Assembly: GCA_964649825.1 (NCBI GenBank)
Contig: CAZYQW010000086.1
Span: 21,027 to 85,026 of the forward strand
Length of the DNA: 64,000 nt
Origin: an uncultured Phycisphaeraceae bacterium
Lineage (GTDB): Bacteria > Planctomycetota > B15-G4 > JADJEK01
Reading direction: 5' to 3'
Of the stretch, positions 23,141 to 52,025 are shown piece by piece. The translations under genes and the position numbers were made by a program. The first letter of the stretch is position 1, and the number at the start of each line of letters is the position of its first letter. The notes under the pieces were generated by a model. It had not been told where the DNA came from. It searched no databases and was given only the letters and a program-made list of their open reading frames with translations.

Positions 23141-23344
23141 GCCGCCGAGGCGGCGTATCATGGCGACCGCACCCACCGGCGCGGGGCGCGCGAGGAGTGG
23201 TGGTGCGATTCGCTCGGAAACCCGCGGTATCGTTGAAGCGGCATCGACGCTCGGCGCACGGGGCGGCGACGCCGACCGATCGCAACCGCCCCCGAGCCTC
23301 CCGATAGGCGCGCGCCGGAAGGCGGTCGGCGCGGCTATCATGCT

Positions 23345-31834: not shown

Positions 31835-32367
31835 CGCACGCCCTCGGCGCCGAGCTCGCGTCCGAGCCACGCCCGCGCAAAGCGCCAGTCGAGATCGACG
31901 GTGCGCGGCGAGACGCGAAGGACGGCCGCCGTCTCGTCGACCGAGAGCCCACCGAACCATTTCAGCTCCACGACTCGGGCCGCGCGCTCGTGCTCGCGAC
32001 CCAGCCGGTCCAGCGCCTCGTCGAGGGCGAGGAGGTCGGCAGTCGACGTCTCGCGCGCGCCGTCCGCCGCCACGAACTCGAGGCGAACGCGATCACCGCC
32101 TCGCTTGGCCGCACCGCGCCGCCTTGCATGGTCCACGAGAACCTCGCGCAGCGTGCGCGCGGCCAGAGCCAGGAAGTCGCCCCGCGCGACCCAAGCCGCT
32201 TCATTGCGCCCGAGCAGCTTCAGGAACGCCTCGTGCACGAGCGCGGTCGACTGTAGGGTATGTCCGGGCCGCTCGCGCGCGAGCGCCCGACTCGCGAGAC
32301 CACGCAAGCACTCGTAGACGATCGGCGTCCACCACCGGGCGTCGGAGCGAGTCGAATCGTGAGACAT
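31831..32367 (-). CDS. ECF sigma factor of the Ser/Thr-kinase-associated type (Sigma70_ECF/PF07638-like).
   Basis: The 178-aa ORF reads LVHEAFLKLL (region 2) and has a C-terminal region-4 helix-turn-helix (LSVDETAAVLRVSPRTVDLDWRFARAWL). It is translationally coupled to the kinase gene. Confidence 0.7.
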   Translation of the reverse strand: MSHDSTRSDARWWTPIVYECLRGLASRALARERPGHTLQSTALVHEAFLKLLGRNEAAWVARGDFLALAARTLREVLVDHARRRGAAKRGGDRVRLEFVAADGARETSTADLLALDEALDRLGREHERAARVVELKWFGGLSVDETAAVLRVSPRTVDLDWRFARAWLGRELGAEGVR

Positions 32368-34274: not shown

Positions 34275-35531
34275 GTGACGAACCCCTCGGTCGACGCCGA
34301 TCGCCTCTATCAGTCGCTGGACGAACTCGGCCGGATCGGCGCGTTCGAGGACGAGACGACCGGCCTCGTCGGCGTGCGACGCCTCGCGCTGACCGACGCG
34401 GACGCGGACGGGCGCAACCGGGTCGTCGCCTGGATGCGGGACGCGGGGCTCTCGGTCTCGATCGACGCGATCGGCAACGTCTTCGCCGAGCGACCGGGCG
34501 CGGACCGGTCGCTGGCGCCGGTCATGGTCGGCTCGCACATCGACTCCGTCCCGACGGCGGGACGATTCGACGGGACGCTCGGGGTCCTCTCCGGTCTGGA
34601 GATCGCCCGGCGCCTGAACGAGCTCGACCGCTCGACGCTCCGGCCGCTCGTCATCGCGTTCTTCACCGACGAGGAGGGCTGCCGTTTCGGCACCGACATG
34701 CTCGGCAGCGCGGTCGCGACCGGTCGGATGCGGCTCGAGGACGCGTACGCGCTGACCGACCGCGAGGGCCGCTCCGTCGGCGAAGAGCTCGAGCGGATCG
34801 GCTTCCTTGGCGCGGAGCCGGTCGGGCAGCGACGGCCGCACGCGTACGTCGAGTGTCACATCGAGCAGGGGCCGATGCTCGTGAACGAGCGCGTCGACGT
34901 CGGCGTGGTGACCGGGGTGCAGGCGATCTCCTGGATCGAGGCGTCGTTCATCGGACGCTCGGCGCACGCGGGCACCACGCCGACGTCGTACCGCCGCGAC
35001 GCGGGGCTGGCCGCGGCGCGCGTCAACGTTCGTCTGCGCGAGATGGTCGACTCGGGCGACTACGGCGAGCTCCGCGCCACGATGGGCGTGCACCGGCCGC
35101 ACCCCGGCGTGGTGAACGTGATCCCGGGCCGGTTCCTCGCCACCATCGACCTCCGCAATCCCGACGACGCGATGATGGAGCGCGCCGAACGGGACGTGAT
35201 CGCCTACCTGGAGGAGCGCGAGCGCGACGATCGCGTCGAGGTCCGCTTCCGCCGGACCGCGAAGACCGGGATGGTGCCGTTCGACCCGCGCATGCAGGCG
35301 TTGATCGACGAGGTCGCGGGCGCCCGCGGACTCTCCCGCCGCCCGATCCTTTCCGGCGCAGGGCACGACGCCCAGGAGTGGGCCCCCATCTGCCCGACCG
35401 CCATGGTCTTCGTCCCTGGCGAGCACGACGGCATCAGCCACAATCCACGCGAGCTCTCGACGAAGGAGCAATGCGAGCACGGCGCCAACGTGCTGCTCGA
35501 CGCCGTGCTCACGCTCCTCGACGAGGAGTGA
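34275..35531 (+). CDS. M20-family amidohydrolase (allantoate amidohydrolase/N-carbamoyl-amino-acid hydrolase type).
   Basis: The ORF starts with GTG. The metal-ligand motifs read GSHIDSVPTAGRFDG and FFTDEEG. Confidence 0.75.
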   Translation: MTNPSVDADRLYQSLDELGRIGAFEDETTGLVGVRRLALTDADADGRNRVVAWMRDAGLSVSIDAIGNVFAERPGADRSLAPVMVGSHIDSVPTAGRFDGTLGVLSGLEIARRLNELDRSTLRPLVIAFFTDEEGCRFGTDMLGSAVATGRMRLEDAYALTDREGRSVGEELERIGFLGAEPVGQRRPHAYVECHIEQGPMLVNERVDVGVVTGVQAISWIEASFIGRSAHAGTTPTSYRRDAGLAAARVNVRLREMVDSGDYGELRATMGVHRPHPGVVNVIPGRFLATIDLRNPDDAMMERAERDVIAYLEERERDDRVEVRFRRTAKTGMVPFDPRMQALIDEVAGARGLSRRPILSGAGHDAQEWAPICPTAMVFVPGEHDGISHNPRELSTKEQCEHGANVLLDAVLTLLDEE

Positions 35532-35777
35532 CGGCGCGCTCGATCCGACCACGATCGTCGGCTTCTCGGTCCGGATCGATCGGAGTCTCCGTTCATCGGT
35601 CGCATTCGAGTCAGGAGATCGACCATGCGACCTGCTCGGCCACGAACCTCGCTCGTGAGTTCCCTCCTCGTCCTCGCCGCGTTCTCGGCGCTGCTCGCCT
35701 CGGAGCTGGCGGGCCAGGTCGCGGCCCCGGGTTCTTCCGAACCAGAGCGTCCGCCGCTGAGCGGCCGTCGCGACACC

Positions 35778-38636
35778 TCACGGCGCGTCGAGCACGCCGA
35801 GGAGCCGCCGCGCGCCGCGATGGTCGGGGTCGACCCGGAGCACCTGCTCGACCAGGGTCCTCGCGTGGCGGAGGGCGCCGTCGGCGACGGCGTCCTCCGC
35901 CACCGCCGTCCACGCGTCCAGGTCGTCCGGGTGCTCGGTTCGCCAGCGCCACGTCGCCTCGCGGCGAAGCCCGTCCGCTGGACAGACGCCGCGCACGAAA
36001 CGGAACGTCAACGGGGTCGGCGACGACGCGCGCAAGAGCTGCGCGCACGCGGCGGCGAGTCCGCCGTCCTCGTCGGTCGCGAGCCCCGCGGCGTGGACCA
36101 GGCTAACGTGCGCCAACGGAAAGACCGAGTCGCGCTGGGCGGCCACGAGGAACTCGCGGGCCGCCGCGGCCCGATCGCCGCTCCGGCTGCGACACCACGC
36201 GCGCACGAACGCCATCGTTCCGTCCTCGTTGCTCGCGACGACGCGGTCCAGCGCCGACAGCATCGACTCCCGCGCCTTCCCGAGCAGAAGGACCGAGAGG
36301 GCCGCCGCGGTCGTGTCCCTCCAGTCCCGCGCCACCGACGGCGGAATCCGGAAGAGCGCCTCGGCGAGGCCGTCCTCCATGCCCGCGCTGGCGGTCGCGG
36401 CGAGCCCCGCGAGCGGCACGGCGAGGCGCATCACCGCGTCGAGCTTGGACGGCTCCTCGCCCAACACGCGATGCATCGCCTGCTCCTCGATCACCCGCGA
36501 AGCCTCGGTCACGTTCGCGAGCACGCCGAGCAACGCCCGCAGGATCCCGAGGGCGGACTCGCTCACCCGCGGGTAAGCGTCGACCAGCGCGGCGAGGTTG
36601 CTTCCCTCGACCACGGCCCGGCACCCGAGCTCCACGAACTGCGCCGACGGATCATCCGGGTACAACCGGCGATACTCCCGCGCCGCCTGGAGCGCGCGGG
36701 ACGGATGACCGGTCAACAGCAGCGTCGGCGCGAACATCTCGTTCGCGCGCCGATGACGGGAGTCGGCGGCGAGCGCTCGCTCGAGGTGGAGCCTCGCGGA
36801 CGCGGCGTCGCTCGCGAGCAGGGCGGCCGCGTACTCGGCGTCCGCCGCGTCCAGCCCGCCGCACGCGACGGCGTCCGCGACGAGCTCGAGGTGTCGCGGC
36901 TCGGCCGCGCGCTCCAGGTGCTCCCGCGTATGATCGCCGCGCAGGAGCAGCGTCTTCGCGAGATGGGGTCCGAGCTCGGCCGCCGAGAACCCGGCCAGCT
37001 CATCGATCGCGGCGCGCGCCCGCGCCAGCGCGCCCGCGCCTTCCCACGCCTCGATCTCGGACACGCGGATCCCGATCTCGTCGGCGCAGCCCCGGGCCCG
37101 CGCCTCCGCGTACCGCGCGTGCGCTTCCTCCCAGCGCCCGTAGAGCGCCGCGCGCAGCCCGAGGTTGAAGCTCTCCTCGGCGCTCTTCTGCGCCAGCTCG
37201 TCCCGCGACAGGACCGCGTCCTGCTCGCGAGCCCGCGCGACGTTTCGCTCGCCGCGGATGGCGAAGAGCGCGACGATGACGAGGCCGGTGATCAACGCCA
37301 TCGAGACCGCGGCCGAGACCGCGAGGGGCCGGTTCCGGACCATCCACTTCCGCAGCTCCGCCCACGGGCCCTCCTCGTAGGCGGCGACGACCCGTTGCTC
37401 GAGGAACGCGCGCAGGTCCTCGAGCAGACTGGTCATGCTCGGGTACCGATCGTCCACCCTCCACGCCATCGCCCGTTCGCAGACCGCCACCAGCTCCGCG
37501 GGCGCGTTGCCGGCCTTCGTCGCGAGCGGCGTCGGCGGGCCGCGCCGGGCCAACGCCAGCACGTCGGCCGCCGTCCGAGATTCGCCGCCGTCCAGGTAGG
37601 GCGCGTGGCCCGCGAGCAGCTCGTACAGGATGGCCCCGAACGCGTAGACGTCGGTGGCGGGGCCGATCCGATCGAGGTCGCCCGCGGCCTGTTCCGGCGC
37701 CATGTACGGGGCCGTCCCGACCGCTTCCCCCGGGTCGGTCCGGAGCGGCGAGCCGCGCTCCTCGACCAGAGCGTCGGCCCGCGTCGAGGTGACGCCGGAC
37801 GATGCCGAAGGCGAGCCGTCGGACACGAGCCGCGCGAGGCCCCAGTCCACGACGTACGTCTCTCCGAAGCGCCCGACCATGACGTTCTCCGGTTTGAGGT
37901 CGCGGTGGATCACGCCACGAGAGTGCGCGAACGCGAGCGATTCTCCGGCGCGTAGAAGGACGCCGAGCACCCGGGCTCGATTCCAGCCCTCGACGCCGCT
38001 CCTCGTCTTCGCGAGGACCGCGCGCAGGTCCTCGCCGGAGACGAGCTTCATCGCGTAGAAGACCCGGCCGTCGCGCGTGCCGACGTCGTGGACCGGGACG
38101 ATTCCGGGGTGGTCGAGCTGCGCCGTGACCTGCGCCTCCTCGAGGAATCGCCCGAGGCGGCGTCCGTGCTCGACGTCGCCGGGACGCCCCATCTCGTCGC
38201 TCATCATCTTCAACGCGACGGCGCGCCGGAGGTCGACGTCGAACGCGTGGTACACCTCGCCCATGCCGCCTCGTCCGAGGACCCCGTCGAGCACGTACCG
38301 GGGCTCGCCCGCCGCTCGCGAGCGGACCCGTTCCAGGAGGGCCGCCCACGTCGATGGGTCGCTCGGGTCGCCCTCGACGACCACTCGTCCGGGTTCCCCC
38401 CCGGCCGGCGCGGGCGAGGACGGCGACAGAGCGTCCCACACCAGCCCTTCGTACGCTCCCCAACCCGTCGCCAGCTCGCGGAGCGCCTCGGCATGCTCCG
38501 GGTAGCGGGAGGCCACCGACTCGATCGATCCTTGCTCGCCGCGTTCCCGCGCGGCCAGGTACTCGAGGAACGCGTCCTCGAGCGACGCCCCGTCCGGTCG
38601 ATCACCACCCGAGGCTTCATCCGCTGAAGAACGCAC
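35778..38636 (-). CDS. Ser/Thr protein kinase with a TM helix and a large C-terminal helical/TPR-like region.
   Basis: The kinase motifs read VALKMM, VIHRDLKPENVMV, DWGLAR and GTAPYMAPE. The TM segment reads LAVSAAVSMALITGLVIVALFAI. The start is uncertain. A GTG at 38636 is preferred over ATG 38732, because the interval contains 11-bp tandem repeats that are unlikely to be coding. Confidence 0.75.
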   Translation of the reverse strand: MRSSADEASGGDRPDGASLEDAFLEYLAARERGEQGSIESVASRYPEHAEALRELATGWGAYEGLVWDALSPSSPAPAGGEPGRVVVEGDPSDPSTWAALLERVRSRAAGEPRYVLDGVLGRGGMGEVYHAFDVDLRRAVALKMMSDEMGRPGDVEHGRRLGRFLEEAQVTAQLDHPGIVPVHDVGTRDGRVFYAMKLVSGEDLRAVLAKTRSGVEGWNRARVLGVLLRAGESLAFAHSRGVIHRDLKPENVMVGRFGETYVVDWGLARLVSDGSPSASSGVTSTRADALVEERGSPLRTDPGEAVGTAPYMAPEQAAGDLDRIGPATDVYAFGAILYELLAGHAPYLDGGESRTAADVLALARRGPPTPLATKAGNAPAELVAVCERAMAWRVDDRYPSMTSLLEDLRAFLEQRVVAAYEEGPWAELRKWMVRNRPLAVSAAVSMALITGLVIVALFAIRGERNVARAREQDAVLSRDELAQKSAEESFNLGLRAALYGRWEEAHARYAEARARGCADEIGIRVSEIEAWEGAGALARARAAIDELAGFSAAELGPHLAKTLLLRGDHTREHLERAAEPRHLELVADAVACGGLDAADAEYAAALLASDAASARLHLERALAADSRHRRANEMFAPTLLLTGHPSRALQAAREYRRLYPDDPSAQFVELGCRAVVEGSNLAALVDAYPRVSESALGILRALLGVLANVTEASRVIEEQAMHRVLGEEPSKLDAVMRLAVPLAGLAATASAGMEDGLAEALFRIPPSVARDWRDTTAAALSVLLLGKARESMLSALDRVVASNEDGTMAFVRAWCRSRSGDRAAAAREFLVAAQRDSVFPLAHVSLVHAAGLATDEDGGLAAACAQLLRASSPTPLTFRFVRGVCPADGLRREATWRWRTEHPDDLDAWTAVAEDAVADGALRHARTLVEQVLRVDPDHRGARRLLGVLDAP

Positions 38637-38649
38637 GGGACCTCCTCCT

Positions 38650-38681
38650 CCGCTCGAGTTTCCGCTCGAGTTCCGCTCGGC
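38650..38681. repeat. Tandem 11-bp direct repeat (CCGCTCGAGTT x2 plus a partial copy) in the divergent region between the kinase and ECF sigma genes.
   Basis: The sequence was read directly as tCCGCTCGAGTTtCCGCTCGAGTTCCGCTCGG. The unit length is not a multiple of 3. Confidence 0.4.
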
Positions 38682-38872
38682 GTGCCGCCGCGAGCGACCG
38701 ACCCTCCGCCGAGAAACTCTGGCAGAATCCACGTCCGGTGCGCCGCGCCGCCACGTTCATTGGGGGCAGGACGCGTCCGACGGCTTCGAGACCGCGGAAA
38801 GGAGCGCGCGTGCCCGGCCAGGATCCTACCCCTTCACCCGCCGAGCGGCATGAAACCCCTTCTCGCGACCGC

Positions 38873-39511
38873 ATGGAGACCGACGAGTTCCTCGGTCTCT
38901 TCCAGCGCGCGAAAGAGGGCGACCTCGACGCCTTCGAGCGGATCTTCGAGCGGTGCTACAACACGGTCCTCGCGATCGTTCGCCGCCGGCTGGGGGCGCG
39001 GATGCGCGAGGTCGTCGAGTCCGGCGACGTGCTCAACGACGTCATGGTGCGGGCGATCCAGAACTTCTCCGGCTTCGACGTCGGCAACCGGACCGAGCTG
39101 CTCGCGCTCTTCGTGCACATGGTCAAACAGGGGATCACGGACGCCGCCCGCTACCACGGGGCGCAGAAGCGAGACCGCGACCGCGTGCGCGCGCTCCGGC
39201 ACGTCACCGAGTCGATCGCCAGCGGCCGCCTCGTCCTCGAGCCGGCCGCGGACGCGCCCGCCATCCTCGACCACCTCTCGCGCGAAGAGGAGAAGGAGAT
39301 CGCGAAGCAGTGCCTCGCCGAGCTCGACCCGACCGACCGGGCCGCGATCGAGTCCCGCACGATCCACGCGGACGCGAGCTGGGACGAGATGGCCGCGCTC
39401 CTCGGTGCGCCGAGCGCGGACGCCGCCCGTCATCGAGTCCAACGCGCCATGATCGCGCTGAAGAAGCGCTACGACCGAGCGAGGGGCGGCGATCGTCCTT
39501 CGGATTCTTGA
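38873..39511 (+). CDS. ECF sigma factor, Ser/Thr-kinase-associated type (second copy).
   Basis: The ORF starts METDEFLGLFQRAKEGDLDAFERIFERCYNTVLAIVRRRL and has a C-terminal region 4 (LDPTDRAAIESRTIHADASWDEMAALLG). It is divergent from the kinase at 35778. Confidence 0.7.
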   Translation: METDEFLGLFQRAKEGDLDAFERIFERCYNTVLAIVRRRLGARMREVVESGDVLNDVMVRAIQNFSGFDVGNRTELLALFVHMVKQGITDAARYHGAQKRDRDRVRALRHVTESIASGRLVLEPAADAPAILDHLSREEEKEIAKQCLAELDPTDRAAIESRTIHADASWDEMAALLGAPSADAARHRVQRAMIALKKRYDRARGGDRPSDS

Positions 39512-39535
39512 TTCGTGTTTCCAGAGGAGAGACCC

Positions 39536-39907
39536 ATGAAGCGCTTTCTGACCCTAGCGATGCTCGCGATCCTCGTTGGCAGTGCCACCGGATCGATGTC
39601 GTTCTTTCGGCCCGGTGGAAACGCCGGGACCAGCTCGCCACCCAACGGTGTCTACAGTGGCAAGGTCCACGTCCGCGGCCAGTCCTACTACGTCGTCGGT
39701 CACGTGAAGATCCAGGGGATCGACTCGCTCGTCCCGGGAACGCTCTGCATCTCGTTCGACGAGGCATCACTCGATCCCATGGAGAAGGCTACGCTCGAGC
39801 GCGCGACGTTGCCCGGCTCCGGGTACGAGAACGTCGAGGTGGGCATCGCCCCCGAACCGGGCATGCCCGGCACGCCGACGGTTCGCTGGGTCGATCCGTT
39901 GCCGTAG
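39536..39907 (+). CDS. Small secreted hypothetical protein.
   Basis: A GGAGAG ribosome-binding site lies 5 nt before the ATG. The signal peptide reads MKRFLTLAMLAILVGSATG. It sits immediately downstream of the ECF sigma gene. Confidence 0.5.
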   Translation: MKRFLTLAMLAILVGSATGSMSFFRPGGNAGTSSPPNGVYSGKVHVRGQSYYVVGHVKIQGIDSLVPGTLCISFDEASLDPMEKATLERATLPGSGYENVEVGIAPEPGMPGTPTVRWVDPLP

Positions 39908-39945
39908 ATCGAAGCGCACGGCATCCAGGACGCTACGCTGTCGCC

Positions 39946-40707
39946 ATGCCCGAACTCCGTTCGCCGCGCCCCGTCTACCTGCCGCGTCTGCTCTCCAAGT
40001 ATGGATTCTGCTCGCGGAAGGAGGCGGAGCGGCTCGTCATCGACGGGCGCGTGGCGGTGAACGGCGTCACGCGCCGCAACGTCCTGTTCGAGGTGCGGCC
40101 GGGCCGAGATCGAGTCACCGTCGACGGTGCGGCGATCGCGCCGGCCGCGCCCATCGTCGTGAAGATGCACAAGCCGGTCGGCGTCGTGACGACCATGAAG
40201 GACGAACGCGGGCGCGCATCGGTGAAGGACCTCCTCCCGCCGGACCTCGCCGGGGTGATGCCGATGGGAAGGCTCGACCGCGACACGTCCGGGCTGCTCC
40301 TCCTCGGCAACGACCACGACCTGGCCAACCTCGTGGTCGGCGATCGATCCCGCGTCGAGAAGCTCTACCGCGTCACCGTGGCCGGTGCCCTCGACGACTC
40401 CCGGCTCGCACCGCTGCGTCGCGGAATCACCCTCGACGGCGAGCGCTGTCGTCCGGCGCGGGTTCGCGTCCAGCGCGTCGTGGACGGCGCCGTGGTGGTC
40501 GAGGTCGTGCTCGTCGAGGGGAAGAACCGCCAGATCCGACGATCGTTCGCGGCGCTCGGGCTCGAGGTCGTCCAGCTCGAGCGCCTCGCGGTCGGTCCCG
40601 TGGCCCTTGGAGACCTCGCGCCGGGCGAGGTCTGCCGCCTCGCCGCCGCGGAGCTCGCGGCGCTCCGCCTCGCCGCCGCGGCGGAGCGCGGACGAGACCG
40701 CGAGTAG
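39946..40707 (+). CDS. Pseudouridine synthase (RsuA/RluB family, S4 domain plus PseudoU_synth_2).
   Basis: The catalytic Asp loop reads GRLDRDTSGLLLL. The N-terminal S4 motif reads LLSKYGFCSRKEAERLVIDGRVAVNG. Confidence 0.8.
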   Translation: MPELRSPRPVYLPRLLSKYGFCSRKEAERLVIDGRVAVNGVTRRNVLFEVRPGRDRVTVDGAAIAPAAPIVVKMHKPVGVVTTMKDERGRASVKDLLPPDLAGVMPMGRLDRDTSGLLLLGNDHDLANLVVGDRSRVEKLYRVTVAGALDDSRLAPLRRGITLDGERCRPARVRVQRVVDGAVVVEVVLVEGKNRQIRRSFAALGLEVVQLERLAVGPVALGDLAPGEVCRLAAAELAALRLAAAAERGRDRE

Positions 40708-40789
40708 GGCGGTCGTTCCGAGCCCGACGTCCACCGCCTCGATCTCGACGCCGGGTTCGAGCGAGCGCGGACCCGACCGCCGAATCCCC

Positions 40790-41227
40790 CTACGCGCGTC
40801 CCGCGAACTGCTCGACCCGCGCAACGTACCGCGGGAACAGATCGAGCGCGGAGCGAACCGAGTGGAGCACGATCTGGTCGTCGATGCGATCGTACTCGTG
40901 GACGAGTCGGTTGCGTAGGCCGGCGGACGGCGCGAGAGACCGCGCGAGGCTCTCGTCGAGCACTCCGATGCCGGCGAGTGCAATGAAGCTCGTGAAGAGA
41001 TCGTCGGGCGCGACCGCTCCGGAGGCAACCAACATGTGGGCATTCAGGTCGACCGCCGCGTCCACGATCTCCTGGAGCAGGCGCTCCGTCGCCTTGCGTC
41101 GATACACGTCCGCGGCGTACGCCTCGACGGAGAGCTCCTTCATCGGCTCGAGCAGGCGGAGGTTCTGCGTGATCCTCTCCAGCTTGCGAAGAACGATGTC
41201 CTGCTCCAGGGGAGACATCTCGCTCAT
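40790..41227 (-). CDS. HepT-like (DUF86) toxin of a HepT/MntA toxin-antitoxin pair.
   Basis: The C-terminal Rx4HxY motif reads RNRLVHEYDRID. The 145-aa ORF overlaps the upstream nucleotidyltransferase gene by 4 nt. Confidence 0.75.
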   Translation of the reverse strand: MSEMSPLEQDIVLRKLERITQNLRLLEPMKELSVEAYAADVYRRKATERLLQEIVDAAVDLNAHMLVASGAVAPDDLFTSFIALAGIGVLDESLARSLAPSAGLRNRLVHEYDRIDDQIVLHSVRSALDLFPRYVARVEQFAGRA

Positions 41228-41652
41228 GTCCGAGGCGCGGGGTCGAGCCCGCGATCGGCCAGGTACTTTCGAATCCCCCGATGACGCGACGCACGGAGCT
41301 TCGACGTGTCGTTGTACCGCCGGAGCGCGAGGCTCGCGAACGAGGCGAACGCTCCCGCCTCGGACTCGTGCAGCGCGATTCCGTAGCGGGCGATCGCCAT
41401 CGCCAGCAGCGGAGTCGTGCGGCGGACGTCGACCACGTCGACCCGCCCGCTTCCGAGTCGGTGCATGATCTCGGCCTCCAGCTCGGCGACGTCGCCGTCC
41501 ACGAGAACCGCGAGGTCGACGTCGCTGTCCGCCCGCGCCGTCCCCTTCGCGTGGGATCCGAACAAGACGATCAAGCCGACCTCGGGACGATCGAAGATCG
41601 GTGACAGACGACGCCGGATGTCGTCCTTGCTGATCGGAGGCTTCGTCGGCAT
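41224..41652 (-). CDS. MntA-like minimal nucleotidyltransferase antitoxin.
   Basis: The nucleotidyltransferase motif reads LFGSHAKGTARADSDVDLAVLV (GSx9-13DxD). Confidence 0.8.
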   Translation of the reverse strand: MPTKPPISKDDIRRRLSPIFDRPEVGLIVLFGSHAKGTARADSDVDLAVLVDGDVAELEAEIMHRLGSGRVDVVDVRRTTPLLAMAIARYGIALHESEAGAFASFASLALRRYNDTSKLRASRHRGIRKYLADRGLDPAPRT

Positions 41653-41811
41653 GGTGCGTCCGATGGTAGCTGGCGCGGGTCGTGGCGGGAAGTCTCGGGC
41701 GGCGGAGGGGACGGCGCGAGGCGGCCCAAGGCGTACGGAGTGCGGGCGCGGCCGGCGATCGGTCTCGCCGAACTCGACTCGGGACCGGCGCCGTTCGCGA
41801 AACGGCGACGC

Positions 41812-41823
41812 GGGGGGGGGGGG
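41812..41823. repeat. Homopolymeric G12 tract.
   Basis: It was read directly as cGGGGGGGGGGGGc, in ORF-poor DNA upstream of the TA pair. Confidence 0.6.
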
Positions 41824-42620
41824 CGCGCGAAGAACGAAGACTGGGCGCGACGGGCAGCGTCGTCGGCCGGCACGCGCGCCGCTCGACATCCGCGACGATG
41901 CTCCTGCCGCTCGGGACCGCACCGCAGACCGCGATGCCGATCCTGCGACACGTGACAGCGAGATGACGATGACGCGCGACGTTCGGACGCGGATCGACGC
42001 CACAGGTCTCGCCGTCGACCCTCGAGCGCGCCCGACGGAGCGGCCACGAGCACGCCGGCGCTCGTGACGCGCAAGTCGGCCTTTCGAGCCGCCGTTCAGG
42101 AGACGAGCAGCTCGAAGATCGCGTGCGGCGACGTCGCCGCGTCGAACGGCGCGCGCGCGTAGTCACCGCGGACTGCCGTGACGCAAAACCCGGAGTCGGC
42201 CGCGTAGGGCGACGTCGTCGTCGTGGGGCTCTCGTCCACGACCGCGCACGCGCCGATCGACTTCTACTCGGGGACGCTGCTCCTCGGCGGGTCGATCGAT
42301 TTCGCGATGCTCGCGGTGATCGGCGTCACGAGCAACGACTGATCGACTCCCGTCTTCATCGTCGATCTCGGGCCCGGAGTGCAGAGCCGGACCGTCCACC
42401 TGAAGACGTTCCACCTCGGGCCGAGCCCGGCGGCAGCGATCGCTCCGTTCTCGGAGGGAATCCTGCTCGACGACTCGTTCTGACGAGCGAACGCGCTCAG
42501 CGCAACGCGAGCGTGATCGGTCCCAACGGGAGCGCACGGGCGCTCCCGCTGCCGAGCAGCTCGCTCGTCTGCTCCACGACCGCCCTCTGAACGACCGCAG
42601 CGGCAAGTCTCGCGCCGAGA

Positions 42621-44078
42621 TCAAAACCCGCTCAACTGCGTCGTCGCCTCCATCAACCCGGCGATCGCCGTCATCGCGGCCGGCGACAGCGTCCCCGTCA
42701 GGAACGCCGGGAACAAGTCGACGGCCTCCTGGTCGTCGAGCGGCAGGTAGTACGCTTCCTCGACGTACGCGCCGCCGATCGAGCGGCGGTGGTACGTGTA
42801 CGCGCCGTCCGTCATGCATCGCAGGTGGAGGTCCTTCGCGGGCGCCGCGGTCGGACTCGGCTCGTACGGCCCTTTCGGTTTGAACCGCTGGCTGAACGCG
42901 AACGGACGTCCCGACGGCGCGGCCGGATCCATGATGAGGTGCATGAAGCTCACGCTGTCCGACGGTCCCGCGAGGGTGACGAGGCCCGCGTCCGCGCCGG
43001 TGACCGCCGCCACCGTGGCCCATACGTCGGCGCCGCTCACGAGCTGACCGCACGTGCTGCCTGGGTGGTTCACGAGGGGACCCGTCACGACCATCGGGAC
43101 GCGGACGCCGAGTCGATGGACCGACCCCTTGGCGTGCGTCGGATCGAACGGCGCCTCGACGAGCTCCATCGGCGTGCCGTTGTCCGCGAGCACGATGATC
43201 ATCGTCTGTTCCCGCACCGCCGGAGCGATGCCCGCGATGAGGCGGCCGAGCTCGGTGTCCGTTGCTTCGATCATCCAGTCGTACGCGGAGACGGCGGACG
43301 GTCCGTCGCCGAGGTCGTCCCCGGGCGCGTAGCCGGCCGCCGTGATCTGCTCCGCGGTCGCGGGCGAGACCGTCGTGAGCGGCGGGACCTGCCACGGGGC
43401 GTGCGGCGGGTTGAAACCGACGTACGCGAAGAACGGCCGGGGCTGGGCGTTGATCCAGGTCAACGCGTCGCTCCGCACCACGCTCGCGCTGAACGTCGTC
43501 TCGTCGAACGGGCCGTCCACGCTGCCGACGTGCTTTTTCTTGGTACCCGAGGCGTCGCTCGCGACCTTGGCCCAGGAATAGTGGTTCGATACGTTCCCCA
43601 TCGGTCCCACGAAGCGCTCGTACCCGTTCGAGATCGGGTGCATTCGGTTGGACTTCCTCGTCAGATGCCACTTCCCGAACGCGCCGCGCGCGTAGACCGG
43701 CGCCGGCGCGACGAAGCCGTCCCTCAGCAGCTCGGCGATCGTCGCTTCCTTCGACGGAAGGGACAACTCGGACCCGGGGTTGGCACCCATCCCCGTGCGG
43801 AACGCGTAGCGGCCGGTCTGCACGAGGGCTCGGGTCGGTCCGCAGAGCGGGTTGACGTACGCGTTCGTGAACAGCACGCCCGACTCGCGCAGCGCGTCGA
43901 ACGTCGGCGTGGGCGGAAACGAGACGCCCTGACCGTACGCCTTCAGCTTCTCGGTCCCGACGTCGTCCAGGAGCACGACGAGCACGTTCGGCCCGTCGGT
44001 CGCGCTCCTCTGCGCATCGGCGGCGGACGAACCCGCGACGACGACCACCGCCCAGAGAATCCCCAGTCGATGCAACAC
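42621..44078 (-). CDS. Arylsulfatase (formylglycine-dependent sulfatase).
   Basis: The active-site CxPxR reads NPLCGPTRALVQTGRY. An AGGAGG site sits 6 nt before the GTG at 44078. The signal peptide reads LHRLGILWAVVVVAGSSAADA. Confidence 0.8.
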   Translation of the reverse strand: MLHRLGILWAVVVVAGSSAADAQRSATDGPNVLVVLLDDVGTEKLKAYGQGVSFPPTPTFDALRESGVLFTNAYVNPLCGPTRALVQTGRYAFRTGMGANPGSELSLPSKEATIAELLRDGFVAPAPVYARGAFGKWHLTRKSNRMHPISNGYERFVGPMGNVSNHYSWAKVASDASGTKKKHVGSVDGPFDETTFSASVVRSDALTWINAQPRPFFAYVGFNPPHAPWQVPPLTTVSPATAEQITAAGYAPGDDLGDGPSAVSAYDWMIEATDTELGRLIAGIAPAVREQTMIIVLADNGTPMELVEAPFDPTHAKGSVHRLGVRVPMVVTGPLVNHPGSTCGQLVSGADVWATVAAVTGADAGLVTLAGPSDSVSFMHLIMDPAAPSGRPFAFSQRFKPKGPYEPSPTAAPAKDLHLRCMTDGAYTYHRRSIGGAYVEEAYYLPLDDQEAVDLFPAFLTGTLSPAAMTAIAGLMEATTQLSGF

Positions 44079-44346
44079 CCGTACCTCCTGCCCGCTCGCG
44101 AGCCTGCGCGCCGGACCAAGCTCAGCGGCGCCGGCCTCCGATTCTCGCGCGCCGCGGCCCGAGCGGCAACGGACGCGTGGCTCCGTTCCTTCTCGACGAC
44201 CGACTCGACTCGCGAGGAAGCTCCAGGAGACACCGATGCAATCGAGGCGATCGGGGCCGACCACGACCTGGGTGACGACACCGAACGGCCGGGCCGCGGC
44301 CGAGCGGGAAGACGCCCCGCGGACCCCGCGCGGCGCCGGCCTCGGG

Positions 44347-44748
44347 CTACGCGGTCTTGCGGGCGAGCGTCAGCGCAGCGACGTGCTTGCGCACTACTTC
44401 GACGAGCTGCTTCGGCTCGAACGGCTTGCGCATGTACTCGTCGGCGTTGCGATCTCGCGAACCTCGCTCTCCGCGGTTCATCTCCCGCGCGCTGAAGATC
44501 ACGACCGGGGTGTCGCGCGTCGCGTCATCCGTCTTCAGCCGCTCGAGGGTTTCCCACCCGTCGAGGCCCGGCATCATGATGTCGAGCAGGATGACGTGCG
44601 GGCGGCACTCCCGCGCGCGCTGGATTCCATCCTCGCCGCTCGCCGCGGTGATCACCTCGAGCCCGTCGGCCTGAAGCACCATCGCGGTCGATTCCACGAT
44701 CCAAGGGTCGTCGTCGATCACCAAGACTCGGGCGTTGGGCAGCGCCAT
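44347..44748 (-). CDS. Single-domain response regulator (CheY-like receiver).
   Basis: A GGAGGAAGC site precedes ATG 44748. The receiver motifs read RVLVIDDDPW (acid pocket) and HVILLDIMMPGLDG (phospho-Asp). The track N-terminal extension is discarded. Confidence 0.75.
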   Translation of the reverse strand: MALPNARVLVIDDDPWIVESTAMVLQADGLEVITAASGEDGIQRARECRPHVILLDIMMPGLDGWETLERLKTDDATRDTPVVIFSAREMNRGERGSRDRNADEYMRKPFEPKQLVEVVRKHVAALTLARKTA

Positions 44749-44990
44749 GCTTCCTCCGTTGTCGTCACACGCGGGTGTTCCGGATCCCTGAACATGGCCG
44801 ATGGTATCACCTGAGCCCGAACCGAAGATGAATCGACTGCTACCCTTTTTCGGCTGCGCGACGCCGATCGGGCCGTTCGGCCCGCATCCTGCGCCCCGCG
44901 CGATCTCGCTCGATGCACTCAACGTTTTCTCGGACAACGACTTCGAGTCGCCTCACTCGAGCCCGAGAGCGATCGTCCTGAACCTCTTTT

Positions 44991-46280
<1,290 letters not shown>

Positions 46281-46464
46281 CGATCATCCTCCGTCGACGT
46301 CACCCGAACATCATCCCGGACGATTCACGCCCGTCCCGCGAGAAACGGAGCGGCGCGGGAGCACAACCCCTTACTTGGACCGACAGACCCATTGCAAGGA
46401 TTTGGAGCGAGCTTCCCTCGCGGAGTGATCGTCGTCGAGATCCAGGAGTGAGGAGGAGATCGAC

Positions 46465-46550
46465 CCGGGTGGGTTCTCGACGACGAACGACGCAGAGATC
46501 GGCGACGAGCACCCGCCAGGCGCGGGACGGGCGGGAATCGTTCGGGATCA
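46465..46550. repeat. Copy B of the conserved ~80-nt non-coding element (GGGTTCTCGACGACGAACGACGCAGAGATCGGCGACGAGCACCCGCCAGGCG...), upstream of the gene at 46721.
   Basis: It aligns, by eye, at roughly 90% identity with 23055-23140. Confidence 0.5.
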
Positions 46551-46720
46551 TAGGTCCGTTCGCCGCGCAACTCAGCACGACGCGAAGTGGTCGCCGCGAC
46601 AACCACGCGAGGCGCGGGAGAACGCCGTCGCGGAAGGAGACCCGGCGGCGAATCGGCCTGCTATGCTGCGCGCGAACGAGAGCGGACCAGCCCACAACCG
46701 TCCCGCGAAGGAGGAATACC

Positions 46721-47974
46721 GTGTCGTCACTATCGATCCGAGCATGCGTCCTGGCCGCGCTGTCCGCAGCCGTCGCGTCCGCCCATCCCGTCGATGTCGA
46801 CAAGGAGCTGTGGATCCGCGACCTGTCGGTGTTGGACGATCCGATCCGCACCGTCTACGTCGAGAACCCGCCTACCCCATCGCACGGCGCGTGGAGCTTC
46901 GGGCGCCTGATGGAGAACATGGCCGGCACGCACGACGTCTCCGACTTCGTCATCCACCTCTTCCAGGAGTACGAGACGACCCAGACGATCAACGGGTGGT
47001 CGATCCCGCCGCGGCCGGGCATGCTGCAGCAGGTCATCCAGCCGTGGATCGACGCGAGCAAGGCGAATGGCGTCAACGGTCTCGACTTCACCATCGCACC
47101 GTTCGCGCTGACCGGCATCGTCAACCGGATCGACCTGCGCGGGAACGGCTCGTACGGGACGACCACCAGCGGCGGCGAGGGTCGGATCATCTTCAGCGCG
47201 CTCACGGGCGGCTCCGCCACGATCATGACCGTCATCTTCGAGTACGAGCTGCTGGCCGACTCTTGCGAGGACGTCCTGGGGTGGGCCGAGGCGTGGCACG
47301 CGCTCGGCGCGATTCCGTTCGGCCCGGCCTATAACGCGGCGCTCGAAGACCTGGTCGACCGGTTCGCCGGCAAGAACGTCGCTCCCGGCCGGCCGAACGG
47401 CAGCGCGCTCGCCCAGTTCCGCAGCAACGAGCTCGCCGGCGAGTTCCCCTGGCAGTGGCGCGAGTTCCAGCTCACGCCGACCACCGGCTGGCTCGACCAG
47501 GTCACGGTGGCGCAAACGCCGCAGACCGTCATGAACCAGACCAAGGCGCTCCGGGACTACGTCAACCAGAACGAAGCGGCGATCTTGAACGGCACTCATC
47601 TGGTCCCCCTCCAGTTCCAGGCGGCGCCGTTCCGCGGCGGCAGCTCGGACGGCGAGGACAATGGGCTCCGCGCGCACTTCCGCGCCGAAGGGATCCTGAA
47701 CAACGACGCCCGACACCTGTTCTCGCTGAGTACGTGCGTCGCCTGCCACACGGACGAAACGGGGACCGGGTTCTTTCACGCGTTCCCGCGCTCACCGGGC
47801 CAGACGACGCTGCTGTCCGACTTCCTGACCGGCACCACGATCGCCGACCCGGTCGACCCGACGAAGAAGCGATCGTTCAATGACCTGAAGCGCCGCGTCG
47901 CCGACCTCGAGAAACTGTTGAAGTCGACATGCAGCGAGCTCGCGTCCGAGAAGCCGCTGCTGCGCGTGCACTGA
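46721..47974 (+). CDS. Secreted hypothetical protein with a single CxxCH heme-binding motif.
   Basis: An AGGAGG site sits 6 nt before the GTG. The signal peptide reads VSSLSIRACVLAALSAAVASA. The heme motif reads STCVACHTDETG. Its GC content is lower than that of its neighbours. Confidence 0.55.
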   Translation: MSSLSIRACVLAALSAAVASAHPVDVDKELWIRDLSVLDDPIRTVYVENPPTPSHGAWSFGRLMENMAGTHDVSDFVIHLFQEYETTQTINGWSIPPRPGMLQQVIQPWIDASKANGVNGLDFTIAPFALTGIVNRIDLRGNGSYGTTTSGGEGRIIFSALTGGSATIMTVIFEYELLADSCEDVLGWAEAWHALGAIPFGPAYNAALEDLVDRFAGKNVAPGRPNGSALAQFRSNELAGEFPWQWREFQLTPTTGWLDQVTVAQTPQTVMNQTKALRDYVNQNEAAILNGTHLVPLQFQAAPFRGGSSDGEDNGLRAHFRAEGILNNDARHLFSLSTCVACHTDETGTGFFHAFPRSPGQTTLLSDFLTGTTIADPVDPTKKRSFNDLKRRVADLEKLLKSTCSELASEKPLLRVH

Positions 47975-49063: not shown

Positions 49064-49831
49064 TCAGCGTTCGACGCGGCCGGCCCGAAGCGCGGCGTCG
49101 GCGAGCGCGGACAGCGCGGCGCTCGATGACGCGGCGGCCACTCGCACTCCGAGCCTCGCCAGCGCGGCCGAGGCGGTCCGGCCGAGAACCACCTGCCTCG
49201 ATCCGGAGAGACAGGCTCGCGCGCGCGCCGGACCGATCGCGGCGACGAGCGCGCTCACCGCCGAGCCGGACGCCCATGTCACCACATCGATGGTCTCGTT
49301 CAAGAGCTGCCGCTCCATCGCCTCCGCCGCGGCCACGCCGGCGAAGACGGTCCGGTACGCGATCACCTCGGTGACGAGCGCCCCGCGCCGCTCGAGCGCG
49401 TCGGGCAGCACGCGCCGCGCCTGGTCGCCGAGCGGCAGGAGGACGCGGCGTCCGCGGAGCGGGCCCGAGCGCTCGAGCGCACCGACGAGCCCGTGCGCGT
49501 CGGCGCGCTTCGGCACGATCGCGACGGTGAGACCGACGTCGCGAAGCCGTTCCGCGGTGCGCGCGCCGACCGCGGCGAGCGCCGGTCCGGCGAGCGATGG
49601 TGCGGGGCTCATGCGGCCGGCGGCCGCCAGGAGGGACTCCACCGCGTGGCGGCTCGTGAAGGCGACGAGGTCGAACGACGCGAAGGTTCGCGCCGCCGCG
49701 TCGAGCCGGGCGGGGTCGCGCGGAGCCGCGATGCGAAGCAGAGGATGCACGGCCACGACGGCGCCGCGGTCGGAGAGGAGGCGCGTCAGCTCGCCGTCGT
49801 CGTCGGGCCGGGTGACCACGACGACGGTCAT
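49064..49831 (-). CDS. hemD: Uroporphyrinogen-III synthase.
   Basis: The ORF starts at ATG 49831 and reads [19 protein letters not shown]...[12 protein letters not shown]. It sits in the hem operon between hemC and hemB. Confidence 0.7.
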
Positions 49832-50745
49832 CGGCCCCCTCCGCGCCGGAGGCCGGCGACGAGCGCGGCGCCGACCTCCGCCCCAACGCCGGCCGCGGCG
49901 GCGACGGCGCCCTCCAGCCCGCGCTCGACCCGCACCTCGAGATCCTCGCTGAACAGGACCGCGCGGAGCCGAAGGCGATCGCCGTCGACCTCGGCGTGCG
50001 CGCCGAGCGGCAACGAGCAACCGCCTCCCGCCGCGAGCAGCACGGCTCGCTCGGCCGTGACCGCCGCGCGGGTCCAGGGGTCGTCCAGCCGCTCGCGCAG
50101 GAACTCGGCGACCTCGTCGTCGCGCGACTCGACGGCCAGCGCGCCCTGGCCCGGAGCGGGAAGCACGACGTCGAGCGCGAACGTCTCGATCGCCTCGGCG
50201 CCGCGACCAAGCCGGTCAAGGCCCGCCATCGCCAGCACGATCGCGCCGAACTCGCCGTCCCGGAGCTTCCGGATCCGCGTGTCGACGTTGCCGTGCACCG
50301 GGACGAAGTCCAGATCGGGCCGCCGGAAACGCATCTGCGCGACGCGGCGCGGAGATCCGGTCGCGACGCGCGCCGCGGGGGCGAGCTCCGCGAAGCACGG
50401 ACCGTTCGAGAGCAACGCGTCGCGCGCGTCGGCCCGCGGCGGGATCGCCGCGATCGTCAACCCGTCCGGCACCTCGGCCGGGAGGTCCTTCAACGAATGG
50501 ACGGCGAAGTCGATCCGGCCGTCACGGAGCGCCTCCTCGAGCGCGCCGGTGAAGAGCCCCTTCGGCAGGGACCGGCCGGGCGCGATCGGATGTTCCTGCC
50601 GGCGGTCGCCCTCGGTTCTCACGAGGACCGTCTCGATCTCGATCGCCGGATCCGACGCACGGATCGCGTCGGCCACGTGGCCGGACTGCGTTCGCGCGAG
50701 CAGGCTTCCCCGCGTTCCGAGCCGGAGCCGCCGCGGTGCCGTCAC
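49828..50745 (-). CDS. hemC: Hydroxymethylbilane synthase (porphobilinogen deaminase).
   Basis: The proposed GTG start at 50745 gives [15 protein letters not shown]. The protein contains HSLKDLP and the cofactor Cys region [11 protein letters not shown]. Confidence 0.85.
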
Positions 50746-52025
50746 TTCGACTCGTCCTCGTCGAGCTCGAACAGCTCGCGCAGCGTCTTGGCGAATCCAC
50801 CTAGACGCTCGCCGCCCCCCTTCAGCCGCCGCGTCGGGGTCTGGAGGAGCTTGTCGATCAGGACCCTCGAGAAGAGCTCGACGGACTCGTGGTGCTCCTT
50901 CGGGATCCGCCCGATCGCGCGCGCGAGCTCCCGGCCGCGGATCGAGTCGAAGCGTCCATGGAGCTGGCGGAGCAACGGGTCGAGCTCGCGCGCGGCGCCC
51001 CACCAATCCGCGAACGCCGCGAGCTCGCGCTCCACGAACCGCAGCACGCGCGGAACCTCGCCCTCGCGCCGCCGGCGCGTAGCGTCGGCGAGCGCCTCCA
51101 GGTCGTCGAGGTCGTAGAGGAACACGTCTCCGAGGTCGGCCGCGGCGGGATCCACGTTGCGCGGCACGCCGACGTCGATGAGGAGGAGGTGAGGTCCCTC
51201 GCGCCCGCGCATCGCGCGCGCGACGTCATCCGCCGCGAGGACGTAGTCGCCGCCGCTCGGCGCGGCCGCGGCCAGGACGATGTCGGCCTCGTGCAGGCGG
51301 CGGTAGGCGTCTTCGCGCGGCAGCGCGTGGGCGCCGATCCGCTCGGCGAGATGCGTCGCGCGCTCGATGCCGTGCCCCGTGATCCAGACCCGCGCGACGC
51401 GCCGCTGCTTCAACGCGCGCGCGACCGTTCCCCCCGTCTCGCCGGCGCCGATCAGCAGCACGGTCCGCCGCTCGAGGTCGTCGAACACCTTCGCCGCGAG
51501 GTCCACCGCGATCGACCCGATCGAGGCGGCACCGGCCGAGATCCGCGTCTCGGTGTGCGCCCGCTTCGCCACGCGGAACGACGCGGGGAACAGCCGCCGG
51601 AACGTGGGGCCGACCGATCGGAGCTCCACCGCCTCGTCGTACGCGTCGCGCACCTGGGCCAGGATCTGGGTCTCGCCGAGCACCATCGAGTCGAGCCCGG
51701 CCGCGACCGACAACGCGTGCGCCACCGCCTCTCGCCCGTCGAACGTCACGAACGTCCCGTCGGGAAGCTCGCGGCCCGGGTCCTTGAGGTCGCGGAACGC
51801 GTCGACCAAGCGCGCGGCCGGCAGCGCGTCCTCGGACCCCGGCTCACCGGCGGCGTAGACCTCCGTCCGGTTGCACGTCGACAGGACGACCGCCTCGCGG
51901 ACGCCGTCGACCCCGAGCACGCGCCGCGTCACCTCGGCCCGATCGGGGACGTCCAGGGCGACGCGCTCGCGCACCTCGACCGAGGCGGTGCGATGCGACA
52001 CGCCGACGACGGCGATGCTCCTCAC
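50742..52025 (-). CDS. hemA: Glutamyl-tRNA reductase.
   Basis: The proposed GTG start at 52025 gives VRSIAVVGVSHRTASVEVRERVAL. The protein contains the catalytic VLSTCNRTEVY, the NADPH motif LLIGAGETG, and GVPRNVDP. Confidence 0.85.
   Translation of the reverse strand: MRSIAVVGVSHRTASVEVRERVALDVPDRAEVTRRVLGVDGVREAVVLSTCNRTEVYAAGEPGSEDALPAARLVDAFRDLKDPGRELPDGTFVTFDGREAVAHALSVAAGLDSMVLGETQILAQVRDAYDEAVELRSVGPTFRRLFPASFRVAKRAHTETRISAGAASIGSIAVDLAAKVFDDLERRTVLLIGAGETGGTVARALKQRRVARVWITGHGIERATHLAERIGAHALPREDAYRRLHEADIVLAAAAPSGGDYVLAADDVARAMRGREGPHLLLIDVGVPRNVDPAAADLGDVFLYDLDDLEALADATRRRREGEVPRVLRFVERELAAFADWWGAARELDPLLRQLHGRFDSIRGRELARAIGRIPKEHHESVELFSRVLIDKLLQTPTRRLKGGGERLGGFAKTLRELFELDEDESK

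Follow-up and report, generated by a model that had tools for sequence, protein, structure and literature searches.

The DNA between a HepT/MntA toxin–antitoxin pair and a neighbouring sulfatase gene most likely contains one lineage-specific (orphan) gene that is no longer intact, flanked by a spacer on either side. Together with the toxin pair, the region probably comprises four unrelated and mostly ordinary things: a toxin–antitoxin operon, a 411-nt spacer with a run of G, a broken orphan gene with a possible inversion, and a spacer with a hairpin. Throughout, the window refers to the whole 64-kb stretch of DNA that was analysed. Because the mntA start codon occupies 41650-41652, the gap between mntA and the sulfatase gene begins at 41653, and its 968 bases (41653-42620) fall into three parts. 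The first-pass annotation had described the gap as about 1 kb without a convincing open reading frame (ORF). No gene is indeed called there (zero calls in 41796-42620 or 41653-41839 on two Logan contigs), but the stretch is not uniform, and its truly non-coding part comprises only 411 bases. None of eight candidate ORFs from the gap was on record in a 15-billion-protein collection, and no paralog of the stretch was found elsewhere in the window. The features of the region are as follows.

40790-41227, minus strand: hepT, HEPN/DUF86 RNase toxin, 145 aa (Pfam PF01934, E=1.4e-23)
40892-40915, minus strand: RX4HXY motif RNRLVHEY, HepT residues 105-112 (regular-expression match)
41224-41227, minus strand: ATGA, in which the mntA stop (TGA) is shared with the hepT start (ATG), read directly from the sequence
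41224-41652, minus strand: mntA, minimal nucleotidyltransferase antitoxin, 142 aa (PF18765, E=1.3e-13; PF01909, E=6.7e-10)
41515-41559, minus strand: GSX10DXD catalytic motif GSHAKGTARADSDVD, MntA residues 32-46 (regular-expression match)
41653-42063: non-coding spacer, 411 nt, from mntA (leftward) to the orphan remnant (rightward), without codon periodicity
41812-41823, plus strand: run of 12 G (12 C when read on the mntA strand) that lies 160-171 nt upstream of where mntA starts (run-length count)
42064-42483, plus strand: orphan coding remnant of about 139 codons, broken by in-frame stops and facing the sulfatase gene (periodicity p=8e-11)
42141-42159: left arm of a 19-nt inverted repeat, 17/19 complementary (repeat search)
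42160-42242, minus strand: inter-arm segment, 83 nt, stop-free on this strand (translation)
42243-42261: right arm of the 19-nt inverted repeat (repeat search)
42340-42342, plus strand: in-frame TGA (translation)
42484-42620: spacer, 137 nt, from the remnant stop to the sulfatase stop
42527-42548: hairpin of 9 bp with 8 G-C pairs and a 4-nt loop (inverted-repeat search)
42621-44078, minus strand: sulfatase gene, 485 aa, with a GTG start and an AGGAGG ribosome-binding site (PF00884, E=5.9e-33)

The hepT and mntA pair

Judged by domains, motifs and relatives of solved structure, the pair is a canonical, ordinary type VII toxin–antitoxin module of the HepT/MntA kind with nothing unusual in either protein. 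HepT scored 83.3 bits against PF01934 (cut-off 23.5) and 97.3 bits against the NCBIfam equivalog HepT_toxin NF047751 (cut-off 60), and its top relative of solved structure was 7ae9_A, "HEPN toxin" (E=3.3e-21). MntA scored 51.3 bits against PF18765 (cut-off 26.9), 39.7 bits against PF01909 (cut-off 21) and 82.3 bits against MntA_antitoxin NF047752 (cut-off 60); its top relative of solved structure was 7ae2_B, "MNT antitoxin" (E=1.5e-8), and the closest MntA in the databases shared 62% identity. The first-pass annotation had recognised the canonical MntA-HepT organisation, and the domain, NCBIfam, motif and structure matches all bear this out. Both motifs that it had named were located by regular expression, GSX10DXD in MntA (present in 0.5% of shuffles) and RX4HXY, as defined in PMC7641770, in HepT (present in 0.75% of composition-preserving shuffles). 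The HepT motif RNRLVHEY aligned with GLRNRLVHEYDDID of 7ae9, which is the same motif. The 4-nt overlap of the two genes was likewise found, as ATGA. On the minus strand, the antitoxin gene mntA (41652-41224) lies upstream and is followed by the toxin gene hepT (41227-40790), and Logan contig L001 carries identical calls for both genes.

The same two domains are found in the HEPN/MNT system of Aphanizomenon flos-aquae (PDB IDs 7AE2, 7AE6, 7AE8 and 7AE9) and in SO_3166/SO_3165 of Shewanella oneidensis (PDB IDs 5YEP, 6M6U and 7BXO). In both of these type VII systems, as in the present pair, mntA comes first and overlaps hepT, the RX4HXY and GSX10DXD motifs are present, and both proteins are shorter than 150 aa (PMC7641770). 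The present pair differs from them only by sequence divergence, and its host belongs to an uncultured high-GC lineage. In the type VII HEPN/MNT system, Y104 of RX4HXY takes three AMPs and GSX10DXD is needed (PMC7641770; the mechanism is also treated in PMC13000451). The present mntA-hepT is a chromosomal type VII operon on the minus strand with mntA first. By analogy with characterised homologs, the GSX10DXD centre of MntA would use ATP to place AMP units on HepT Tyr112, the predicted AMP acceptor, beside the RX4H RNase site. The RNase of HepT modified in this way would be silenced, and a lapse of the modification would lead to RNA cleavage by HepT and to a stop of growth.

The orphan remnant facing the sulfatase gene

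The segment 42064-42483 most likely represents a single plus-strand gene that has lost its integrity. The GC content by codon phase over 42020-42483 was 0.90/0.61/0.57 (p=8e-11), and the frame is the one whose codons start at coordinates congruent to 1 mod 3. Codon scores and 3-periodic Markov scores preferred the plus frame from 42188 to 42500; in the left part (42064-42140), the two strands scored nearly equally. Three in-frame stops (TAG, TAG and TGA) interrupt the plus frame, and they were reproduced in an independent Logan contig. The protein-like peptides that the first-pass annotation had quoted as interrupted by stops belong to this same frame and are separated by a single TGA (42340-42342), past which the coding-like signal goes on up to 42480. 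This TGA showed no sign of being a selenocysteine or read-through codon in the form of a SECIS-type Rfam match or a redox motif. No recognisable ribosome-binding site was found at GTG 42064. Transcription of the former gene, of about 420 nt, would have pointed away from mntA, in the direction of the sulfatase gene.

The first-pass annotation had regarded an empty BLASTX search as evidence against its own reading, and no homolog was found in any frame tried. The remnant plus frame had no match in 5.8 billion proteins or, in an exhaustive HMMER search, among 1.84 billion representatives (E up to 0.001). The minus-frame translation of 42096-42560 had none in the 5.8-billion-protein set (E up to 10), and a six-frame Pfam scan of 41653-42620 returned no family at E up to 1. 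For the reconstructed 139-aa protein, nothing was found in Pfam or among plasmids, the sole match in the PDB had E=1.6, and the phage matches, all at E ~0.1, spanned two annotated genes. No genome of a close relative was present in the collections searched (GTDB species genomes and JGI metagenomes): the best match of the neighbouring pseudouridine synthase had 57% identity in the former (a Phycisphaeraceae MAG without synteny) and 46% in the latter, and the sulfatase had no relative in the JGI metagenomes. Because no homolog was found in any frame, it is composition that marks the remnant as a probable gene. In its coding periodicity, its in-frame stops and its lack of a gene-finder call, the remnant resembles an ordinary orphan pseudogene; in contrast to such cases, it lacks the intact homolog that usually serves as proof, the collections searched containing none. 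The earlier proposal of an eroded gene or mobile element is supported for the decayed gene, given the coding periodicity and the in-frame stops, but not for the mobile element, which is considered below.

The arrangement of the stops suggests a repeat-bounded inversion within the remnant. The two arms of the 19-nt inverted repeat, one of only 7 such pairs in the 64 kb, enclose both plus-frame TAGs (42160-42162 and 42205-42207), each of which is the antisense of a Tyr codon. When 42141-42261 (121 bp) was inverted in silico, both TAGs disappeared and the plus frame was open from 41956 to 42339. The inversion also raised the margin of sense over antisense from 0.15 to 0.30 bits per codon, so that 42064-42480 scored like a real gene (0.30 vs 0.32-0.44 bits per codon for three real genes). 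TGA 42340 persists in either orientation of the segment. The most economical history would be one inversion of the 121-bp segment between the 19-nt repeats, which would have put the two antisense Tyr codons in frame as TAG, and one nonsense TGA. With the stops set aside, the codon usage between the arms favoured neither strand. The inversion is only suggestive, because the antisense frame that shares the wobble positions is often open in this 71% GC DNA (0.015 stops per codon) and because inverted repeats within periodic sequence are usually in phase anyway. The window and Logan contig L082 have the segment in the same orientation, and four reconstructed 92-aa products of the opposite orientation were not on record among assembled proteins. 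A MITE-like insertion between the arms was considered and rejected: the segment keeps the codon phase of its flanks and has no other copies in the window.

An unlikely alternative history is that the one plus-strand gene was broken by three separate nonsense mutations (TAG, TAG and TGA) and no inversion. Three stops in one frame, a continuous periodicity and an antisense frame that is frequently open by chance would agree with it. However, it requires three nonsense hits without any frameshift, where a GC3 still at 0.90 indicates little other decay, and it leaves to chance that both TAGs, as antisense Tyr codons, are placed exactly between the arms of a rare inverted repeat and that the inverted version has the better score.

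To the same degree, we doubt that the stretch contains two or three real small genes instead of a pseudogene. The ORFs concerned are as follows.

42096-42239, minus strand: 47-aa ORF with a GTG start, not on record as a called gene and without a homolog
42223-42342, plus strand: 39-aa ORF with a GTG start
42379-42483: perhaps a 34-aa ORF with a GTG start

In the Markov model, the plus frame was favoured from 42188 on and the minus frame between about 42000 and 42240, all three ORFs begin with GTG, and their very high GC3 (0.92-0.98) does not look decayed. However, the two main ORFs overlap by 17 nt head-to-head, which leaves no room for promoters, and have no clear ribosome-binding site; none of the three is called by the annotation on record and none has a homolog. 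A single former gene fits better than small genes, because the coding signal runs past both stops in one common phase.

The spacers and the G-run

The spacer upstream of mntA (41653-42063) had no Rfam match, shuffles folded at least as well as its RNA (z +2.3 and +0.2), and neither a sigma-70-like promoter nor a terminator was found in it. Incidentally, no stop closes the mntA frame across C12. An N-terminally extended MntA, with the frame open to GTG 42003 and C12 translated as PPPP, was rejected because codon periodicity was absent in 41653-42019 (p=0.77). The 411 nt are a non-coding spacer that contains the G12/13 run. In the 137-nt spacer on the other side of the remnant, the hairpin could serve as a terminator in both directions; a U-tract is absent, and the spacer as a whole did not fold significantly (z about -1.2). 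For the sulfatase gene beyond it, a called gene that matches exactly confirms the start. An exact look-up of HemL gave no match, probably because Logan contig L082 ends within that gene.

The run of exactly 12 G that had been reported at 41812-41823 agrees with our count. After it, the longest run of G or C in the 64 kb has 7 bases, and the decay of run lengths (0.24 per base), when extrapolated, leads to an expectation of 0.005-0.01 runs of at least 12 per window. The tract has one base more in each of the two independent Logan contigs (G13) than in the window (G12), and each contig ends at it. With 12 bases (13 in the Logan contigs), it exceeds the length for slippage of about 8 or more. The tract may be unstable and slip readily in vivo, during sequencing or in both, and the earlier suggestion of a slipped-strand hotspot is consistent with the different lengths in the assemblies and the contig breaks at this site. 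The difference between 12 and 13 G may also have a purely technical cause in sequencing or assembly.

Homopolymeric tracts of poly-C or poly-G act as contingency loci in the promoters of opc and porA in Neisseria and of fim in Bordetella. The present tract resembles them in its length (12-13 G/C) and in its location, a classic one, upstream of genes in the spacer that separates divergently oriented coding sequences; it also differs by one base between two assemblies. In contrast to those loci, the starts of mntA and of the remnant are 160 and 240 nt away, the tract is known from assemblies alone, and the bacterium that carries it is environmental (71% GC), not a host-adapted pathogen.

The proposed inversion has a counterpart in intragenic invertons that create premature stops, which are documented (Chanin et al., bioRxiv 10.1101/2023.03.11.532203). 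As in those, short inverted repeats are present inside the coding sequence of the remnant, one orientation has in-frame stops and the other restores an open frame. Unlike those, the remnant is an orphan gene with an extra TGA, one orientation is observed, and there is no invertase among 20 large ORFs of the window. Instead of switching reversibly, the segment may have been inverted once, by a mutational accident.

Programmed switching, in which the G12/13 tract, the 121-bp segment or both would form a phase-variation device for the orphan gene or the toxin operon, is improbable on this evidence. The variation of tract length between assemblies, its position, the geometry of the inverted repeat and the precedent of premature-stop invertons speak for such a device. 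However, no promoter was located, the tract is far from both starts, TGA stays in frame whichever way the segment lies, no invertase is nearby, the second orientation is not on record, and homopolymers are well-known trouble spots of sequencing and assembly. Still somewhat less credible is the stronger proposal that the tract and an invertible 121-bp segment are both switches and that the expression of the orphan gene, and possibly of HepT/MntA, varies from cell to cell.

Origin and meaning of the region

The first-pass annotation had proposed that the toxin pair was carried on a mobile element that is now eroded, the kilobase being the remnant of this element, or of a gene on it, that brought the pair into the chromosome. 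Toxin–antitoxin modules do often move, the closest MntA homologs occur in quite different neighbourhoods, and the stretch includes a broken coding sequence. However, no genes of an element, no bracketing repeats and no common flanks were found, and we regard the proposal as scarcely probable. The six-frame Pfam scan revealed no transposase, integrase or other family, no recombinase is encoded by any of 20 large ORFs examined in the window, and plasmid and phage DNA gave no match. A unit bracketed by terminal or direct repeats was not seen (40000-45000 contains only short repeats of low identity), the nearest tRNA is at 14897, and no compositional break was observed, GC and GC3 resembling the rest of the window. 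The loci of the closest MntA proteins (L083-L087; at most 62% identity) have unrelated contexts without blastn or tblastn similarity to the stretch, and transcription of the remnant leads away from mntA. The remnant and the toxin pair lie side by side without belonging to a single element.

A false join, in which the G-run would mark the fusion of two unrelated contigs and the gap would be an assembly artefact, can be dismissed as very improbable: although both Logan contigs stop at the run and L082 terminates in a C15G13 palindrome typical of poly-G artefacts, the join is real because L001 passes the run with 16 specific bases that match the far flank exactly, and the 95-kb contig of a second assembler, from which the window was taken, likewise spans the run.

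Beyond annotation, the region has little significance. What the analysis usefully corrects is the view of the "gene-poor kilobase": it consists of a normal spacer and a broken gene specific to the lineage, and a mobile element has left no scar there. The G12/13 tract, at which short-read assemblies break and whose length varies from one to another, is a minor point of interest. If the inversion proved reversible, the range of intragenic invertons, which were described in gut Bacteroides, would grow to include this distant lineage.

The toxin-antitoxin pair and its neighbours

The first-pass annotation had read two overlapping genes as a HepT/MntA pair. Their positions and lengths are:

41227 down to 40790, minus strand: hepT, 145 aa
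41652 down to 41224, minus strand: mntA, 142 aa

This reading was borne out by family matches, by both expected motifs and by the 4-base overlap ATGA at 41224-41227, which contains the mntA TGA and the hepT ATG. HepT matched Pfam PF01934 (E=1.4e-23) and the NCBIfam model HepT_toxin (97.3 bits, cut-off 60), and MntA matched both PF18765 and PF01909 as well as MntA_antitoxin (82.3 bits, cut-off 60). The motifs, GSHAKGTARADSDVD at MntA residues 32-46 and RNRLVHEY at HepT residues 105-112, were each found in <1% of composition-preserving shuffles. The closest solved structures were 7ae9_A ('HEPN toxin', E=3.3e-21) for HepT and 7ae2_B ('MNT antitoxin', E=1.5e-8) for MntA, followed by the 'HepN family' and 'Mnt family' chains of 5YEP. 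Judged by sequence, the pair is a Class I HEPN/MNT module as defined in PMC7641770, currently named type VII HepT/MntA (PMC13000451). MntA would transfer AMP units onto the tyrosine beside the RX4H site of HepT, and this modification would block the RNase. On the hepT side, the pseudouridine synthase gene contains a perfect 17-nt direct repeat (CCGCCTCGCCGCCGCGG; 40635-40651 and 40665-40681), with its copies 30 nt apart, where it encodes the alanine-rich C-terminal tail.

The intergenic kilobase and its G-run

Between the mntA start and the stop of the sulfatase gene lie 968 bases (41653-42620), in which gene calling for the Logan assemblies reported no gene. Based on GC content per codon phase (overall GC of the window, 70.8%), this gap was split into three parts. 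The left part, 41653-42019, showed no periodicity (0.72/0.74/0.76, p=0.77), and neither did 42487-42620 (p=0.14), whereas 42020-42483 showed a strong single-phase periodicity (0.90/0.61/0.57, p=8e-11), similar in strength to that of hepT (p=1e-17) and mntA (p=1.6e-9). Read from mntA towards the sulfatase stop, the gap consists of 411 bases of spacer, what is most likely a broken orphan gene, and a further spacer of 137 bases. Of the roughly 1 kb that had been described as eroded, 42020-42483 is indeed coding-like with in-frame stops, but the 411 bases are a non-coding spacer. The non-coding left part gave no Rfam match, no promoter-like or terminator-like site was found in it, and its RNA folds were not unusual (z +2.3 and +0.2). 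The right spacer, between the remnant stop and the sulfatase stop, contains one feature:

42527-42548: 9-bp hairpin with 8 G-C pairs

The true sulfatase start is GTG 44078, with AGGAGG ahead of it. A canonical G-quadruplex motif (GGGTCGTGGCGGGAAGTCTCGGGCGGCGGAGGGG) at 41677-41710 (plus strand) is one of only five in the 64 kb with both strands counted; it sits on the template strand, 25-58 nt ahead of the mntA start.

The 12-G run noted earlier is real in the window, with exactly 12 G at 41812-41823. The longest other G or C run in the 64 kb is 7. Run counts drop by a factor of 0.24 per added base, from which 0.005-0.01 runs of at least 12 are expected per window, or roughly one per several-megabase genome. 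Two independent contigs from the Logan assembly of SRR10083321, L001 and L082 (SRR10083321_271262), cover the locus, and the G-run is the terminus of both. L001 is identical to window 34790-41839 except for 13 G in the run, and L082 is identical from the run (41812) to 45486, but with 13 G after an artefactual C15. At this C15-G13 end the homopolymer runs palindromically into its reverse complement, which has the look of an assembly artefact. Because 16 specific bases past the run in L001 match the far flank in the window, the join across the run is real. The run length (12 vs 13) is uncertain or variable, and both slippage in vivo and homopolymer trouble in sequencing or assembly fit. When the tract is 12 C's long, the frame of mntA has no stop upstream as far as GTG 42003 and reads the tract as PPPP, giving a 259-aa ORF (41224-42003, minus strand); with 13 it would not stay open. 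We took this ORF as chance because the extension lacks coding periodicity. A 7-bp palindrome (CGCCGTT/AACGGCG, 5-nt loop; 41789-41807) lies 4 nt from the run and folds no better than shuffles.

The coding-like stretch and its in-frame stops

Within the remnant (42064-42483), wobble positions coincide between a minus frame and the plus frame whose codons start at coordinates congruent to 1 mod 3. We scored the strands by codon log-odds and a 3-periodic second-order Markov model trained on 21 confident window genes; the plus frame was preferred at about 42188-42500 and the minus frame at about 42000-42240. The two peptides quoted in the first-pass annotation both lie in the plus frame, with TGA 42340-42342 between them. 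Further plus-frame stops are TAG 42160 and TAG 42205, antisense of minus-frame Tyr codons (GAC TAC GCG and CCC TAC GCG). All of these in-frame stops are identical in L082 and are therefore not errors of one assembly alone. An inverted repeat, one of only seven of such quality and spacing in the 64 kb, encloses both TAGs:

42141-42159 and 42243-42261: inverted repeat arms, 19 nt, 17/19 complementary, 83 nt apart

In-silico inversion of 42141-42261 gave a single open plus frame, 41956-42339, whose first start codon is GTG 42064, with no visible ribosome-binding site. After inversion, the sense-over-antisense margin of 42064-42480 was 0.30 bits per codon instead of 0.15, compared with 0.32-0.44 in three real genes. 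The most economical reading is a single former gene on the plus strand, about 139 codons long, that may have been disrupted by one inversion plus a single TGA. However, repeats within periodic sequence tend to fall in phase, and in this genome the antisense frame is commonly open (0.015 stops per codon). Once the stops are set aside, codon usage between the arms favours neither strand, and the left 77 bases of the remnant score equally on either strand. None of four reconstructed inverted-orientation products is on record among assembled proteins. We consider the inversion model tentative, a little short of an even chance. A plain pseudogene, in which the TGA and both TAGs would be three nonsense mutations, seems unlikely, given that both TAGs lie between the repeat arms. 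Real small ORFs, which the strand preference changing along the remnant might suggest, are similarly improbable; a collection of about 15 billion proteins lists none of the eight candidate ORFs in the gap.

Relatives and origin of the region

The homology search proposed for the decayed gene came back empty: searched against 5.8 billion proteins, neither the minus-frame nor the plus-frame translation had a match at E up to 10. An exhaustive HMMER pass with the plus frame found none at E up to 0.001 among 1.84 billion representatives, a six-frame Pfam scan of the gap was empty, searches of Pfam, PDB, plasmids and phages with the reconstructed protein gave no match, and the window holds no paralog of the stretch. 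The collections searched contained no close relative of the host lineage and no genome near enough for locus comparison. The S4/pseudouridine synthase reached at best 57% identity in 185,579 species genomes, in a Phycisphaeraceae MAG without synteny, and 46% in JGI metagenomes, where the sulfatase had no relatives.

Toxin-antitoxin modules often arrive by horizontal transfer, and this pair may well have done so at some time, but there is no sign that the adjoining kilobase travelled with the pair. The proposal that the stretch is the remnant of a mobile element carrying the pair found no support: no repeats bracket the unit, GC and GC3 of the gap match its surroundings, 20 large window ORFs have housekeeping or envelope roles and include no recombinase, and transcription of the remnant would lead away from mntA. 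The nearest MntA homologs, at most 62% identical, follow a GH9 cellulase gene or sit by themselves among unrelated genes, and their flanks have nothing in common with the gap stretch and no homopolymer. One homolog, P0004 (58% identical; contigs L083 4001-4408 and L084 593-1000), has no partner gene: the distance to a convergent gene is just 173 nt, too short for a HepT, which makes this homolog either an orphan antitoxin or part of a degraded pair.

Elsewhere in the window, two large plus-strand proteins (8192-10324 and 23237-25267) each carry about six CarboxypepD_reg repeats, and two Ser/Thr kinases (28886-32092 and 35778-38732) have TPR-rich tails; both kinds of protein are typical of Planctomycetota-like genomes. 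Several large ORFs have no Pfam family (13966-14700, 46112-47974, 49816-51117 and 39515-39907). A tRNA with a four-base anticodon (cgcg), called by ARAGORN at 19022-19112 (minus strand), lacks Rfam tRNA model support and is probably a spurious call within coding sequence.

The HepT/MntA pair adds one more routine member to a very large family; of the features described here, only the G12/13 tract and the segment bounded by the repeats could become interesting.
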